Source: Acidobacteriota bacterium (lineage in GTDB: Bacteria > Acidobacteriota > Terriglobia > Terriglobales > SCQP01). From it: a stretch of DNA of 64,000 nucleotides. Every line of letters begins with the position of its first letter. Position 1 is the stretch's first letter. Where the stretch lies: NCBI GenBank assembly GCA_021826505.1, contig JAKAZV010000003.1, positions 643-64,642 on the forward strand, in the 5' to 3' direction. Below the pieces are notes generated by a model. It saw only the letters and a list, made by a program, of their open reading frames with translations, made no database searches and was not told the DNA's origin. This document shows, piece by piece, positions 14,330 to 20,216 of this stretch. The position numbers were made by a program, and so were the translations under genes.

Positions 14330-17146
14330 TCAAGGGCGCGGGAAAACGGTATGCCGGGGAGCCGGCATGGGAGTATTGCCTTTAGCGGCTCGCCATAGAA
14401 TGGCATTTAATACCGCGGAATTGTCCCGGTCGGGCTGGCGGAAATCCATGGCCAGCGAACGCTTTGCGCCGGGGCCATGCAGGGGGTTCATGCGATAGAT
14501 CAGGCCATTGCGGCGGTTCCGCACGCGGGCGCGAAATGGGGATTGCGAGCCCGGACCTTGAAACAATTCGGTCATGGCCGAGGCGCGGGCATCGTTGTTG
14601 TTCATCGGCGGCAGGCCGAGTAAAACCTCGATGGTGCGGATCATATTGACGGTGGTATAGAAATGATGGTCTACATGATTGCGCCGTAAAGGAGCATAGG
14701 CGCTGATGACGAGCGCGGTGCTGCGGTGGGCATCCACATGATCAGGGCCATTCTGGGCATCGTCCTCCAGCACAAAAATGGCGGTGTCCGGCCAATAGGA
14801 GCTGTGGGATATGGCCTGTACGATGCGCCCCAGCGCCAGATCATTGTCGGCGACGGCGGCGGCGGGTTGAGGATAATAGGGCCGCGTGCCGGCGGTATGA
14901 TCCTCGGGCAGCCAGACGATTTCCAGCCGGGGCATGACGGGACCATGGCCGGCGCGGCGGTCGCGGACAAAGGCGCGAAATTCGCGCAAGTATTCGTCGG
15001 CGCGCAACTGATCGGGATAGTTGAGGCGAAAGGCCGGGTAGCGGGGATCAAAATGCCCGCGCACGGAGGCAAAGGTGGCCTGATTGCCGGCCAGGATGGG
15101 AATCGGCCAGGGCCAGGGACTGGGCCGGCCGGAATCGGCGCCCAGGCCCGCCGGCAGGGGCTGATGGGGTTCGATGAAACTTGCGGCACAGCGGCGCGCG
15201 GCCGCGCTGGGCGAACCATTGCGGCCATTGGTATTGCGATTCGATCTGTTACACCAGTGCGAGGCCAGGTCTTCGCCATAAATCCGGAAGCTGATGCCAT
15301 GGCGCGCGGCATCGGACCAGAGATATCGAGTGCTGGGCTCATCCAGGTTCGGTATGCCCTCGCGCAGAGGGTAGCCATCGGCGACCGAGCCCTGGAAATC
15401 ATAGGGCCGCTCGCCGCCGCGATAGTTGAGCTCCCAGTTTTTCTCGTTATAGTCGCTGGTTATAGCCGCATCGGACCATTCATGGCCGTCGGCGGATACT
15501 TCGGCGCTGACATAGAAATTGTCCAGGATGCCGAATTGACGGGCCATGGCGTGTTCGTTGGGGGTTATCGCCTCACAATACATGCAAAACGCGCGGTCAC
15601 CGTTGCCGGGCAGGTCGCCAAAGACCTGATCGTACGTGCGGTTTTCCTTGATGATGTAAACCACATGGCGGATGGGATTGCGGCGCCCCGGAAACATGGC
15701 CGTACGCGGAGGCCGGTTCATGCGATTGGCCCATGCGACCTGGTGGGTCCAAAAGGGCAGGCGCGCCAGCATGGGACGCAGGCTGAGCGTGGCCACGGAG
15801 CCGCGGATCAGCTTGGGGATATAGGTGAAAAAGGGTGGATGGTGGAGCTTGGCATTGGGCCCGGTGCCGATGCCTTTGCCGGAAATGACATAGAGCCGAT
15901 CGTGGTGAACCGCCAGGGCCGTGGGATACCATTGGGCCGGAAGAAAGCCCTGGGCCAGAATAAGCGGCGCGGTTGCGGGCAATGCCGGGTTCATACGGAT
16001 GGGCCGCAGTTGAAAGACCGCAATGCCATCCTGAGCGGCATCGGCGACATAAAGATGGTTGCCCCGCGGGCTTTGCGCCAGGCCTTCGGGATAAGTTCCG
16101 CGGTATTGCTGGGCTGGCAAGCGGGTAGAAAGCCAGGCGCGGACCTGTCCGGTGCGGCGGTTGATCATAGCCACACGATCGCGATTGGAGAGAGTGACAT
16201 AAAGCCAGCGTCCATGCGGGCTGAGCAGGAGCGCGGTGGGATGCGAGCCTGGCGCTATCGGCGATGCCGGGCGCAACAGCGGCCAGAGCTGCTTATGCCC
16301 GGTTTGCAGATTCACCCGCGCGACGGCGGAGCCGTTCCATAAACTGCAGTAAGCGAAATGGCCGTGTGGAGAGACCACCACGCCGTAAGGAAAGGCGGCG
16401 GGGATCACGGACGCGTCAGCCAGGTTGAAGCGGCGCAAAAGTTTTCCGCTACGGGCATTGAGCAGCATGAGGCTATCGGATAAATCCCCGGCCACCAGCA
16501 GACGGTCGCCAGCGGGCGCGGGCCATACAGCCAGGCCGGCGGGGAAAGGATTCACAAAACCACGCGGGACAAAATGCAGGGTGTTGCGATGACCGGGCGG
16601 CAACGGCTGCAAGGGAATGGGTAGAAAACGGGATGGCCGCAAAAGGCCGGACTGAAAACGATATACGGCAATGCCGTTGCCTAAATCACCCGGCCGGCGG
16701 CCCTGGGGGTCACGGTAGGCGCCGACAGAGGCATAAAGCTGGTGGCCGTGGGAACCCCAGGCCAGACCCATATAGTAGGTTTGATGGGCATGCAGATGAA
16801 GGCGGGGGTCGGGGAAGTCCCGTACCTGACCTGTCGCCAAATTCAGGATGGCGATGGATTGATCGTTATGCGAAGCATCGTCGCCGTAACCATTATTCAA
16901 AATGGCCAGGTAGCGTTGATTGGGGCTGAGAGCGGCGACGGTGGGGAAACTGTTGAGCCGGCGCACCGGTCCCGGGTAGGGCAGGGACATTTTTTTACCC
17001 GTGGACAGGGACAAAACTTTGCTCGCGCGTCCCGGTCTTGCAAGATAACGAGCTCCGGCCAGAACGATGATGGAAAGGGCAAAAGCCGCGATCCAGCCGA
17101 AAACGATTCGCGGGCGGAAGGAGGGGAAAAAGGGTAGTTGGCGCAT
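14330..17146 (-). CDS. Beta-propeller (YncE/lactonase-like repeats) fused to a phosphoesterase (PLC/AcpA family) domain
   Basis: 938 aa. The N-terminal half has repeated LYV/LYA...G..V propeller-like units. The C-terminal half starts with the phosphoesterase hallmark VVYIIKENRTYDQVFGDL and later has VLEDDAQNGPDHVDAHRS. Confidence 0.7.
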   Translation of the reverse strand: MRQLPFFPSFRPRIVFGWIAAFALSIIVLAGARYLARPGRASKVLSLSTGKKMSLPYPGPVRRLNSFPTVAALSPNQRYLAILNNGYGDDASHNDQSIAILNLATGQVRDFPDPRLHLHAHQTYYMGLAWGSHGHQLYASVGAYRDPQGRRPGDLGNGIAVYRFQSGLLRPSRFLPIPLQPLPPGHRNTLHFVPRGFVNPFPAGLAVWPAPAGDRLLVAGDLSDSLMLLNARSGKLLRRFNLADASVIPAAFPYGVVVSPHGHFAYCSLWNGSAVARVNLQTGHKQLWPLLRPASPIAPGSHPTALLLSPHGRWLYVTLSNRDRVAMINRRTGQVRAWLSTRLPAQQYRGTYPEGLAQSPRGNHLYVADAAQDGIAVFQLRPIRMNPALPATAPLILAQGFLPAQWYPTALAVHHDRLYVISGKGIGTGPNAKLHHPPFFTYIPKLIRGSVATLSLRPMLARLPFWTHQVAWANRMNRPPRTAMFPGRRNPIRHVVYIIKENRTYDQVFGDLPGNGDRAFCMYCEAITPNEHAMARQFGILDNFYVSAEVSADGHEWSDAAITSDYNEKNWELNYRGGERPYDFQGSVADGYPLREGIPNLDEPSTRYLWSDAARHGISFRIYGEDLASHWCNRSNRNTNGRNGSPSAAARRCAASFIEPHQPLPAGLGADSGRPSPWPWPIPILAGNQATFASVRGHFDPRYPAFRLNYPDQLRADEYLREFRAFVRDRRAGHGPVMPRLEIVWLPEDHTAGTRPYYPQPAAAVADNDLALGRIVQAISHSSYWPDTAIFVLEDDAQNGPDHVDAHRSTALVISAYAPLRRNHVDHHFYTTVNMIRTIEVLLGLPPMNNNDARASAMTELFQGPGSQSPFRARVRNRRNGLIYRMNPLHGPGAKRSLAMDFRQPDRDNSAVLNAILWRAAKGNTPMPAPRHTVFPRP

Positions 17147-17214: not shown

Positions 17215-17894
17215 ATGCCGGTTGCCCGGATCATCAGCATACAGATTGCACAACCTGCGCGGGTGCCGCGCCCGGAAGGGGAATTGTACACGGCTTGCGG
17301 CAAGACTTCTGTAAACGGCCGGGCATGGGTCAGTCCTGAAGGGGTCCAGGGCGACCGGCAAGCAGACAGGAAAAACCATGGCGGGCCGGAACGGGCGGTG
17401 TTGGCCTATGCGGCGGCCCATTACCCGATCTGGCAGGCGGAGCTGGATAGGCATGGCAAGAATTCATCATTGGCATGGGGCGCGTTTGGTGAAAACTTTA
17501 CGGTTGAAGGCATGGAAGAAGCGAGCGTGGCTATCGGCGACCAATATGAATGCAGCGCGCTGCGGCTGGAAGTTTCGTATCCCCGGGAGCCGTGTTCCAA
17601 GCTGGGGCGTTTTTTGCAAGTTCATGGCCTTGACCACAGGATTCGCCCAGTCTGCGCAGCGGCTGGTTTTTCCGGGTGTTGAGCGCCGGCTGGGCGGAAA
17701 CGGGTCAGGAATTGGTTCTGCAGGCGCGGCCTTTCCCGCAATGGACTGTTGCCCGGGTGAGCGCGATCATGTATCACGGCTGGCGTGATCCCGCCCAACG
17801 CGCGGCGATTGGGGCATTGGCCGGGGTCGAGGTGTTTTCCTGGAACTGGCGCAAGCGGTTTATTCAACGCGTGCAGGAATTCCGGGATTCGTAG
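17215..17894 (+). pseudogene. MOSC-domain protein (YiiM-like) interrupted by a frameshift at about 17634-17660
   Basis: ORF 17215-17682 has the MOSC core (GVQGDRQADRKNHGGPERAVL, GENFTVEG, REPCSKLGRF). The expected continuation SGWFFRVLSAGWAETGQELVLQARPFPQWTVARV is in the frame of ORF 17676-17894, which is open from 17634. Confidence 0.65.
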
Positions 17895-17909: not shown

Positions 17910-18785
17910 TTAACTGAGATGTAATTCGCCGCGAATGCGGCTGGCGAGCTGCGGCAAAGAAGACAAGGGCACGAGCTGGATGCCGGAGCTTTGCAGTAAT
18001 TCCGCGTGTTCCGTCCAGGGTGATTCAAGGACATCTGCCGCGGAATCCGGCCTCGGCTGGTCAGCCGCCGATTCCTGGTCTATACCCACTGATGGATGCA
18101 TGGGCGCATCATGCACGGCTTCAATATGAAGCTGCTCCTGGTGATTGGATAGCTGGCGCCTCAGCCGTTCGACGCTGAAGCAAAGGGTTTTGATTTCGTT
18201 TTCGGGGCTCTCGGCGCTGACCGCCTGCAGCAGATGATGCGCGCCATTGGGCTTGTAATAGTAATCAAAGCGGAAATTGTCGTGTCCGCCCGCGAGTTGC
18301 CGGGCGAGGACCTGGGTGGAAAGATGGGGCAGGATGCCGCTTTGTTCGAAGGCCGTGTGCATGGCGTTGAGAATTTGACGGCGTGGTCTCTGTGTCCGCT
18401 CTTCGCCGGATGCGGCAACCGGCGGTTCGGCATATTGGCGGAAAAGCGTGGCGAGTTCGGCGGCGGGATCGGCGGTGAGAACGGTTTTTGCTCCGCTTAC
18501 GGTCAAGCCATGGGAAAACTTATCCTCGGCCATTTCCAGCCAGGCGCCGGGGTCATGCTGGATCAGCTCGCGCAGGTGGTTTTCCAGTCCCGGGAGATCG
18601 GAGTCGAGTCGGAAATCCGGAAACAGACAACGCAAACGGCGATCATCGGCAATGAGTTTCAGGCCGGAAAAGCCGCCATCCGGCTGGAACAGACCGACGC
18701 CGATATTGATGAACTCATGCCGCACCGGGTCGGGCGCAACCCGGATCAGGAAATAGCGGCAGGCGAAAAGTTGCGGGTCGGCCAT
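17910..18785 (-). CDS. DUF3037-like protein (uncharacterised family)
   Basis: 291 aa. The N-terminus CRYFLIRVAPDPVRHEFINIGVGLF matches my recollection of the DUF3037 signature. The start lies 2 nt after the stop of the upstream kinase gene. Confidence 0.6.
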   Translation of the reverse strand: MADPQLFACRYFLIRVAPDPVRHEFINIGVGLFQPDGGFSGLKLIADDRRLRCLFPDFRLDSDLPGLENHLRELIQHDPGAWLEMAEDKFSHGLTVSGAKTVLTADPAAELATLFRQYAEPPVAASGEERTQRPRRQILNAMHTAFEQSGILPHLSTQVLARQLAGGHDNFRFDYYYKPNGAHHLLQAVSAESPENEIKTLCFSVERLRRQLSNHQEQLHIEAVHDAPMHPSVGIDQESAADQPRPDSAADVLESPWTEHAELLQSSGIQLVPLSSLPQLASRIRGELHLS

Positions 18786-18787
18786 GA

Positions 18788-19624
18788 TTAATCTCCTGCG
18801 CCGGCGGCGAGGCTGACGGTGGCGGGAACGTCATCGCGCCACTGAGGAAATGGGTTACGCACCGAGGCGCGCACCGCTGCCAGCAGGTCGCGCAAGCGTT
18901 CGCGGCGCTGCGCCAATTGCCGCAACAGGCGCTCCAGATCATCCCAGGAACCGTACCATTCCGGAGGAACGTGCTCGCCGCAGCTGTAAATAACCTCTTC
19001 TGGGCACTGTTCGATGCGGGCCAGCCAGGGCGCAAATGAATCCCAGCCTCGCACCGCCTGGTACACCTGATTGCGGCTGTACACGCCGCGCAACGGACTA
19101 TCCGGGAAATTCCAGTCGCCGGCATTAAAGCAAAAGCCCTGGTCAATCATGAAAACCCGCATGGGGCGCCGGGGATGGGGACGGCAAAAAATCACCTGGC
19201 GGCCGTTGCAATTGCAGGTCCATTTATCGAAGCAGAGCATGCCGGCAAAGTCGCGCAGGTTGGCCACCAGATCGAGGCCCGCGTCGGGCAGGTAATCAAA
19301 GATCGGAGCGTGCGGGTCCGCGCAAGGCAGGCGGGAAGCGAATTGCAGGCCGGCGGAACAGCGCAGGACTTCGCCCGCCACCCGCAAAACCAGTTCCGGC
19401 GAGCCGGCGATGAGGGAGGCCGGGACTTCGATCAAATCACACGGCGGGACGGGCAGCGCCAGCCATTGCGCCAGGCGCGCGGCGATATATTCGTTGGCGA
19501 GCACGCGCCGGTGCTGGGGATTATTTTGAAATTTGACTACATAGTAATGGCCGTCGTCGGCCCGCAGCAGATGCGACTGCGCGCCTCCCTTCATGGGGCG
19601 AATATGTTCGACGGCCCGCAGCAT
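18788..19624 (-). CDS. HipA-like (HipA_2-type) putative protein kinase
   Basis: 278 aa. IRPMKGGAQSHLLRADDGHYYVVKF (Gly-rich segment plus VVKF lysine), ANEYIAARLAQWLALPVP, FDKWTCNCNGRQ and FMIDQGFCF resemble HipA-family kinase blocks. Confidence 0.55.
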   Translation of the reverse strand: MLRAVEHIRPMKGGAQSHLLRADDGHYYVVKFQNNPQHRRVLANEYIAARLAQWLALPVPPCDLIEVPASLIAGSPELVLRVAGEVLRCSAGLQFASRLPCADPHAPIFDYLPDAGLDLVANLRDFAGMLCFDKWTCNCNGRQVIFCRPHPRRPMRVFMIDQGFCFNAGDWNFPDSPLRGVYSRNQVYQAVRGWDSFAPWLARIEQCPEEVIYSCGEHVPPEWYGSWDDLERLLRQLAQRRERLRDLLAAVRASVRNPFPQWRDDVPATVSLAAGAGD

Positions 19625-19628
19625 AAGC

Positions 19629-20216
19629 CTAACTTGAGGCTATTTTACGCCGGCCCAGCCCATAGCCGAGCCCCAGCAGGGCACAGGAGACGAGCATGAC
19701 CGAAACCGGGTGATGCCGCAGAGCGGCCAGCGCCTGGGCGCCAAACCGCAGCGCCAGCCAGGCTTCGAGAAAATAACGGAGACCGCGGCCGGCGGCCATG
19801 GACGCGGTGAAATGCGGATACGACATTTCAAAGGCCCCCGCGCCCACGATAAAAATCTTAAAAGGCAAGGGCGGCGGCAACAGCGCCGGCAGCGCCACCG
19901 CCAGCACTTCGTGGCGCTCAAACCAGCGATGCATGCGCTGGAATTTTTCTCCCGGCAAATGGCGCTCGGTCCAGGGTCCACCCCAATGCCGCACCAGCGC
20001 GAACAGCAGGACACTGCCCGCGGTGGAACCCGCCGTGGCGACGAGTGCGTACCAGGGCAGCCGAAACGGGTGTTGCAGCACCAGCGCGATCATCAGCACT
20101 TCCGGCAGCATGGGAATGCTGCAGGAATCTATGAAGGCCATGAGAAACAGCCCCCAGACGCCCCAGCGGGAAAACAGATGCTCGACAAGCTGAAATAAAT
20201 GAGCTAAAACGGACAC
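19629..20216 (-). CDS. YqaA/DedA (VTT-domain) family membrane protein
   Basis: 195 aa. WGLFLMAFIDSCSIPMLPEVL followed by 4-5 TM helices. GTG start. The stop is 4 nt before the kinase start. Confidence 0.65.
   Translation of the reverse strand: MSVLAHLFQLVEHLFSRWGVWGLFLMAFIDSCSIPMLPEVLMIALVLQHPFRLPWYALVATAGSTAGSVLLFALVRHWGGPWTERHLPGEKFQRMHRWFERHEVLAVALPALLPPPLPFKIFIVGAGAFEMSYPHFTASMAAGRGLRYFLEAWLALRFGAQALAALRHHPVSVMLVSCALLGLGYGLGRRKIASS

Follow-up and report, generated by a model that had tools for sequence, protein, structure and literature searches.

We analysed a gene pair on the minus strand of a 64-kb stretch of DNA from an Acidobacteriota bacterium of the order Terriglobales (contig JAKAZV010000003.1, positions 643 to 64,642; hereafter the window, numbered from its first nucleotide). 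The pair encodes a HipA_2-family kinase-fold protein and a two-domain DUF3037 protein and, judged by sequence profiles, is a distant Terriglobales relative of the system known as HipAD, DS-6 or PDC-M66. We lean, though not strongly, towards the reading that it is a HipAD-type module, in which a kinase-fold effector would be held by its co-translated DUF3037 partner and, once released, would arrest growth, and that this copy has become fixed in the chromosome. What is new here is a distant form of HipAD whose active site is non-canonical and whose place in the genome is stable, which is atypical.

The kinase gene (18788..19624, minus strand) encodes a 278-aa homologue of DS-6A that matched Pfam HipA_2 (PF20613) with an E-value of 1.5e-11 and 44.5 bits, against a cut-off of 27. 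The partner gene (17910..18785, minus strand) encodes a 291-aa homologue of HipD and DS-6B, presumably an antitoxin or regulator, that matched DUF3037 (PF11236; 4.4e-15). These matches, and that of the VTT protein encoded immediately upstream (see below), all exceeded the gathering cut-offs. An NCBIfam search returned no match for either the kinase or the partner. The two genes are separated by 2 nt (TAA-tc-ATG), and a Shine-Dalgarno sequence, AGGAG, read from the sequence at 18793-18797 (minus strand) within the 3' end of the kinase gene, precedes the partner ATG at 7 nt. Because this AGGAG lies inside the kinase gene, translational coupling of the kinase and its partner is plausible. No helix-turn-helix (HTH) or HipB-like gene was found next to the pair in the Pfam matches of the neighbouring genes; the upstream gene is of the VTT/DedA type. 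A promoter and terminator scan of the locus performed no better than on shuffled sequence. The original prediction, made from the sequence alone, had described three packed minus-strand genes with 4-nt and 2-nt spacers, assigned the latter two to a HipA-like kinase and a DUF3037 protein, and pointed to the missing HipB-like gene, all of which was borne out.

The same prediction had stated that neither family had an experimentally defined role, and this is outdated. DS-6, comprising a HipA-family kinase and a DUF3037+DUF1829 protein, was validated in the DefensePredictor study: it defends E. coli, the D139A substitution in the kinase abolishes defence, and the system was renamed HipAD, after Brenes & Laub 2025 (PMC13092281). 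In the Retron-Sda1 operon, deletion of the HipA-like gene ends defence and deletion of the DUF3037 gene is toxic, indicating toxin/antitoxin (TA) behaviour (PMC12548924). Since the family is thus already validated as an anti-phage TA-like system, the basic discovery has already been made.

We compared the window proteins with DS-6A and DS-6B, whose sequences were taken from the supplement of PMC13092281. According to hhalign, the kinase-family profile aligned to DS-6A with 98.5% probability (E 1.7e-15, 26% identity, 216 columns), and the partner profile aligned to DS-6B with 95.5% probability (E 1.4e-8) over residues 8-123, that is, the DUF3037 domain only. A tblastn search of phage genomes with the window kinase yielded a single record, Escherichia phage PhiR5_1 (PV340545.1), in which a 'HipA toxin' (249 aa) and a 'HipD antitoxin' (275 aa) are annotated directly after cI. 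HipA_2 plus DUF3037 also corresponds to the PADLOC candidate system PDC-M66, whose models matched both window proteins in the right gene order (M66B, 1.6e-11; M66A, 2.1e-4 over residues 24-76 only, PADLOC's own thresholds not being applied). The text of the preprint by Payne et al. does not mention M66 or HipA.

The window pair and HipAD/DS-6 (phage PhiR5_1; WP_000389051.1 / WP_000210934.1) have in common the HipA_2 kinase, the N-terminal DUF3037 domain, the order of kinase then partner, the tight coupling of the two genes (a 4-nt overlap in DS-6, a 2-nt spacer in the window), and the lack of HipB. In both, the partner has about 275-290 aa and two domains, the second predicted, for the window partner tentatively, to be PD-(D/E)xK-like. 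DS-6 is prophage-borne in E. coli, as are relatives of the window pair. By contrast, the kinases are only 26% identical, DS-6A D139 corresponds to N140 in a shorter loop whose Asn is replaced by Gln, and the C-terminal domains of the partners cannot be aligned by sequence. The window copy is moreover chromosomal, syntenic and outside a prophage immunity region. The HipA/DUF3037 pair of Retron-Sda1 (PMC12548924), compared by description only, is likewise found as a stand-alone two-gene system. It adjoins a retron reverse transcriptase (RT) and non-coding RNA (ncRNA), whereas the window has neither an RT nor a structured RNA: an Rfam search found nothing, and a retron ncRNA is thus absent.

The pairing is conserved, as a proposed test of adjacency across genomes confirmed. 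Relatives of the window kinase form at least 6,985 clusters at 90% identity; the species-representative genomes that encode them number at least 578 and belong almost entirely to Terriglobia. Among 79 related loci with room beside the kinase, a same-strand DUF3037 gene follows the kinase in 78. The pairing also occurs in Deinococcus, where the genes overlap by 4 nt, and in an E. coli phage. Only one locus with ample downstream sequence had no detectable DUF3037 gene (L042:5995-6807; a DSPc phosphatase gene lies upstream of its kinase). Two others (L101:8931-10620 and L040) have a single kinase gene with two DUF3037 genes in tandem behind it, possibly through duplication of the partner. HipA_2 kinases of Peribacillus, Niallia and Streptomyces have no DUF3037 neighbour. 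These distant kinases (L113:2501-3277 on Peribacillus plasmid pB, L114 and L115) carry a canonical N-x-D-R loop and may represent a subfamily with a different role; the Peribacillus gene overlaps a glycosyltransferase gene next to dTDP-rhamnose genes.

By analogy with HipAD, translational coupling of the genes would keep the two window proteins in a constant ratio, and the DUF3037 protein ('HipD') would bind the ATP-binding kinase-fold protein and keep it inactive. Loss or displacement of the partner, for example upon phage infection, would free the kinase-fold protein, which would then act on an essential host target and arrest growth according to TA or abortive-infection logic. The window copy belongs to a chromosomally fixed clade whose sister clade resides within the head-gene module of Terriglobia prophages, and the upstream VTT/DedA gene probably does no more than share the transcript. 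The original prediction had raised a TA, abortive-infection or stress-signalling role as a candidate; the TA or abortive-infection idea agrees with the published reading of the homologous HipAD/DS-6 and extends to the window pair by analogy. We infer the interaction of the pair, its toxicity, trigger and target, and any enzymatic activity, from the homologues.

The canonical HipBA and HipBST type II TA systems share with the window pair the HipA-superfamily kinase fold and, as proposed here, the concept of a toxic kinase that a cognate protein keeps in check. They differ from it in several respects. The HipB (HTH) gene of HipBA is missing beside the pair, the window kinase has 278 aa as against about 440 aa in HipA and is missing the HipA N-terminal subdomain, and the putative antitoxin gene lies downstream and is unrelated to HipB or HipS. 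HipA and HipT target GltX or TrpS, and their catalytic motif is not conserved in the window kinase. Of the features described for HipBA (PMC8262856), the window kinase has the Gly-rich loop and the Mg-binding Asp, and the catalytic D-x4-N is replaced by N-G-R-Q. The Pfam HipA_C match was partial and below the cut-off (22.7 vs 30.5 bits), and the hhalign match of the kinase profile to E. coli HipA was weak and partial, covering only the Gly-rich/Lys region (17.5% probability).

The AlphaFold2 (AF2) model of the kinase was confident, with a pLDDT of 87 and a pTM of 0.86. A sequence profile search of the PDB with the kinase gave nothing significant. According to Foldseek, the nearest PDB structures were PI4KIIalpha, Fam20C/Fam20A and CtkA (TMq 0.50-0.57, 10-16% identity, a match at the level of the fold only), with HipA matching more weakly. 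The biology of these proteins is unrelated to that of the window kinase, but Fam20A is a pseudokinase, a precedent for a conserved kinase fold that operates without canonical catalysis.

The window kinase has kept the residues expected to bind ATP. Its Gly-rich loop, placed by alignment at residues 12-17 (KGGAQS; 19574..19591, minus strand), aligned to the 'AGAQEK' loop of HipA in the weak partial match described above; G14 and Q16 were present in all 81 clade members and G13 in 80. The putative Mg2+-binding residue D161 (IDQG; 19142..19144, minus strand), equivalent to the Asp of DFG, aligned with 'IDHN' of DS-6A in hhalign and was found in 81/81 members. Invariant in the clade were G14, Q16, K31, D133, N138, G141, R142, Q143 and D161.

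The catalytic loop, by contrast with those of DS-6A and HipA, is remodelled, a feature that the original prediction missed. The loop comprises residues 132-143 (FDKWTCNCNGRQ; 19196..19231, minus strand), as placed by alignment and by the AF2 secondary-structure register. Residue N140 (codon AAC, 19205-19207, minus strand) stands at the position of DS-6A D139 and HipA D309. As hhalign to HipA missed the loop, the correspondence to HipA was drawn from motif spacing and the AF2 register. The spacing from Phe to Asp is equal in DS-6A (FDKWILNA-D-R) and HipA (FQWLIGAT-D-GHAKN), and the window kinase has FDKWTCNC-N140-GRQ at this place. The AF2 model puts N140 into a loop that joins a helix (125-136) to a strand (143-147), which we read from the secondary-structure register as the catalytic-loop position, and Q143 takes the position of the loop Asn, before the strand. 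Across the 81 clade members, position 140 is Asn in 74 and Asp in 7, whether the context is a prophage or the chromosome; among database matches the numbers are 95 and 12. The distant HipA_2 kinases, from Deinococcus, Peribacillus, Niallia, Streptomyces and an E. coli phage, all have N-x-D-R followed after 4-14 residues by N-[IL]-L. Given this non-canonical loop, simple HipA-type phosphotransfer cannot be assumed.

Both proteins are maintained by selection. Relative to two sister species, used for all such comparisons here, the kinase had a dN/dS of 0.11-0.13, indicating strong purifying selection, and 55 columns were invariant across 31 kinases sharing 51-93% identity with the window kinase. 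Both open reading frames (ORFs) of the pair were intact in every close relative. The partner had a dN/dS of 0.21, with 0.05-0.12 in its N-terminal domain and about 0.4 in its C-terminal domain. Median identity to the window proteins was 54% for the kinase and 33% for the partner. The faster evolution of the partner (33% vs 54% identity; dN/dS 0.21 vs 0.12) is typical of a toxin with its antitoxin or sensor.

The partner was modelled with a pLDDT of 82. Its N-terminal DUF3037 domain, delimited by Pfam and by hhalign to DS-6B, comprises residues 1-125 (18411..18785, minus strand), and its C-terminal domain, residues 131-291 (17913..18395, minus strand), is predicted from the AF2 model and Foldseek to have a PD-(D/E)xK nuclease-like fold. 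In the PDB, the C-terminal half matched Cdn1, Can2, AF1548, R.BspD6I and XPF, all of this fold (E 2e-3 to 1e-2); in BFVD, it matched endonucleases and DUF2726, VRR-NUC and DUF559 proteins. The predicted fold agrees with the assignment of DS-6B to DUF1829, a member of the PDDEXK clan. Pfam DUF1829 itself did not match the C-terminal domain of the partner, and a sequence profile search of the PDB with this domain gave nothing significant. The canonical (D/E)xK motif is absent, and since the β3 strand reads I-Q-A in its place, nuclease activity of the partner appears doubtful. The family has 3,385 cluster representatives at 50% identity, mostly of 265-300 aa and matched end to end. Within the C-terminal domain, a low-complexity, poorly predicted insert at residues ~215-255 (window 18050-18140) is specific to the species group of the window, and among the closest relatives the length of the partner varies with this insert from 291 to 310 aa.

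A neighbour-joining tree of the kinases separated a prophage clade from a non-prophage clade that holds the window copy. In about 48 of 80 genomes, as determined from Pfam and gene clustering, the pair lies between the genes for the large terminase (TerL) and the portal protein of Terriglobia prophages, and on the portal side the cassette continues with a capsid-like gene and a head-tail adaptor. PHROGs models matched TerL (4e-27), the portal (6e-39) and the adaptor (1e-11). The order TerL-pair-portal also occurs in 18 of 19 IMG/VR viral contigs. In our numbering of loci, the prophage-type loci fall within L018-L086 (e.g. L041:4335-9441) and the viral contigs are L090-L107. A slot between terminase and portal is unusual for a defence cassette. 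In five prophage-type loci (L019:6841-7221, L061, L064, L077 and L079), a gene of 124-152 aa stands between the kinase and DUF3037 genes and matches the PHROG 'Avd protein of DGR' (3.8e-12).

A DSPc/PTP-SAK phosphatase gene recurs beside the pair. It lies directly upstream of the kinase in L005, L015, L042, L049, L051, L056, L059 and L063, as well as in L067, L068, L081 and L084, and in L005 (9483-10001) it overlaps the kinase start by 1 nt. In L018, L019, L023, L024, L050 and L077, and also at L106:1362-1901, it is found one or two genes upstream of TerL. These loci are a minority, about 20 of 85, and the window is not among them. The arrangement of the genes suggests a phosphatase-kinase-DUF3037 triad. 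Neither the prophage head-module cassette nor the recurrent phosphatase partner is described in the HipAD literature that we surveyed.

Some flanking genes are common to members of the chromosomal clade: an SLT-LysM gene precedes the pair in six loci, and in L005 a MOSC gene lies downstream of it. In a further subclade (L027-L029 and L048), the pair is flanked by the genes for MutS2/Smr and DnaG primase, which constitutes another housekeeping context, this one purely chromosomal. In the window, the pair has housekeeping neighbours and a flat GC content of 0.59-0.63. No tRNA was found at the locus, a repeat search revealed no repeats that could bound an island, and the 64-kb window has neither DSPc nor phage genes (terminase, portal, capsid, adaptor). 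Synteny of the pair and the convergent MOSC gene next to it extends to relatives with only 69% kinase identity. The window site is thus neither a defence island, for which a check had been proposed, nor the variable or accessory spot that the original prediction had envisaged.

The HipAD-type reading draws on the homology, conserved pairing, coupling signals, purifying selection and genomic contexts observed here, and on the published experiments with DS-6 and the Retron-Sda1 pair, the latter in support of the TA logic. The short spacing from kinase to DUF3037 gene is common to the window, DS-6 and Deinococcus, the ATP-binding residues are kept, purifying selection acts on the two genes, and prophages carry the sister clade, as they do HipAD in E. 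coli. Several results count against it. An Asn occupies the equivalent of the essential D139 of DS-6A (HipA D309) in the window and about 90% of the clade, and in the acidobacterial clade the catalytic loop is shortened and its Asn changed to Gln. The C-terminal domain of the partner had no detectable similarity to the DS-6B C-terminus in hhalign (0.4% probability), and the PADLOC M66A match is weak. Finally, the window copy lies outside any mobile element or defence island and is syntenic across species, whereas defence and TA modules rarely have such a setting.

The strongest rival, which we regard as possible yet clearly less probable, is that the kinase, with its acidobacterial clade, is a re-wired pseudokinase or alternative transferase that has lost canonical phosphotransfer, serving with its nuclease-fold partner as an ATP-binding switch or scaffold and not as a growth-arresting toxin of the HipA type. 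It would have originated as an integral part of the modules for head and packaging in Terriglobia prophages, its primary role being tied to the head cassette, and have been domesticated later on the chromosome. Consistent with such a protein, N140 replaces the catalytic Asp in 74 of 81 members, G141, R142 and Q143 are invariant in the clade, and the distant HipA_2 kinases all retain N-x-D-R...N-[IL]-L. Gene decay is ruled out, given how strong the purifying selection is. The fixed slot between TerL and portal (~48/80 genomes, 18/19 IMG/VR contigs), the conserved synteny of the chromosomal clade and the presence of Fam20A among the structural neighbours also fit this explanation. However, about 10% of members, with otherwise identical loops, again have Asp as residue 140, which suggests functional interchangeability of Asn and Asp rather than a switch of chemistry. 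The Gly-rich loop, the Lys and the metal-binding Asp are all kept, as in active kinases. Moreover, the residue correspondence comes from alignment and the AF2 register and not from a solved structure, and defence 'morons' can sit in conserved slots of phage genomes. Extended to the whole Terriglobia HipA_2 clade (at least 578 genomes), the proposal is that these are re-wired (pseudo)kinases and not phosphotransfer toxins, first integral to a prophage cassette and then domesticated, with a degenerate-nuclease DUF3037 partner and, in ~20/85 loci, DSPc. We hold this broader claim only tentatively; if true, the mechanism would be unlike that of HipAD.

The gene upstream of the kinase (19629..20216, minus strand) encodes a VTT/DedA-family membrane protein (Pfam VTT_dom, 5.1e-12), as had been predicted from its YqaA/DedA-like character. 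It has 195 aa if translated from a GTG; public gene calls place the start at an ATG at 20141 (170 aa), and this is the probable start. A 4-nt spacer (TAG-gctt-ATG) separates it from the kinase gene, and it is probably carried on the same transcript as the pair. Among 78 species-level contexts, a VTT gene precedes the kinase in one, the species group of the window (L001-L004 and L109-L111; three close species). Elsewhere the upstream gene is a terminase in at least 23 contexts and a DSPc phosphatase in 12, and others are MutS2, GNAT, a Ser/Thr kinase-TPR (STK-TPR) protein and a transposase. This variation indicates that VTT is a lineage-specific neighbour.

A membrane-linked operon whose three products (VTT/DedA, kinase and DUF3037 proteins) have a joint function, for instance in envelope-stress signalling, is improbable. 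The 4-nt spacer does imply co-transcription, the order VTT-kinase-DUF3037 is kept in three closely related species, and the VTT gene is under strong purifying selection (dN/dS 0.07). Against this stand the single context in 78, with DSPc, GNAT, STK-TPR, transposase, MutS2 or TerL in the slot elsewhere, and the validated HipAD systems, which work without a membrane component. DedA/VTT proteins are, besides, common housekeeping membrane proteins. We rejected VTT as a component of the module, as which the title of the original prediction could be read.

Downstream, the pair ends 15 bp from a convergent, frameshifted MOSC/YiiM gene (17215..17894, plus strand), as originally noted, which lies outside the module and is 6-hydroxyaminopurine reductase-like. 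It is split into 17215-17682 and 17676-17894 by a single 1-nt deletion at ~17646, in a CGCG run. This deletion is the sole indel in 16 kb relative to contig L001 (a Terriglobales metagenome-assembled genome, 99.8% identical). Three independent assemblies show the split, while L001 and the sister species have an intact gene, so the frameshift is a real allele; it looks like a segregating pseudogene allele. A MOSC gene follows the pair in just 2 of 72 contexts, and we rejected it as a functional partner. Beyond MOSC, a 938-aa protein (14330-17146, minus strand) is conserved in L001 and L003 and has beta-propeller-like repeats (weak matches to PQQ_2, Lactonase and NHL) and, at its N-terminus, a short fragment match to a phosphoesterase family (PF04185).

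That the pair is an inactive relic, a now drifting TA pair of prophage origin with a toxin that the change from D to N has neutralised, would accord with the Asn at the catalytic-base position, the chromosomal site without phage genes and the frameshifted MOSC allele next door, but this is very unlikely: decay is largely refuted by the dN/dS values (kinase 0.11-0.13, partner 0.21), and the 55 columns invariant across 31 kinases (51-93% identity to the window kinase), the intact ORFs in every close relative and the prevalence of the N-type loop among prophage copies as well all speak against it.

The locus and its relatives constitute a natural experiment on how a HipAD-type system works. A whole clade, abundant in soil bacteria, has kept the ATP-binding apparatus but not the aspartate that is essential for defence in E. 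coli, and it is found in settings as unlike as an invariable slot of prophage head modules and stable sites on the chromosome. Should the N-type proteins prove active, the catalytic mechanism proposed for HipA_2 kinases needs revision; should they prove inactive, a toxin fold has been put to a new use on a large scale. In addition, the recurrence of the DSPc phosphatase suggests that the system has a reversible version with three components, as yet undescribed.

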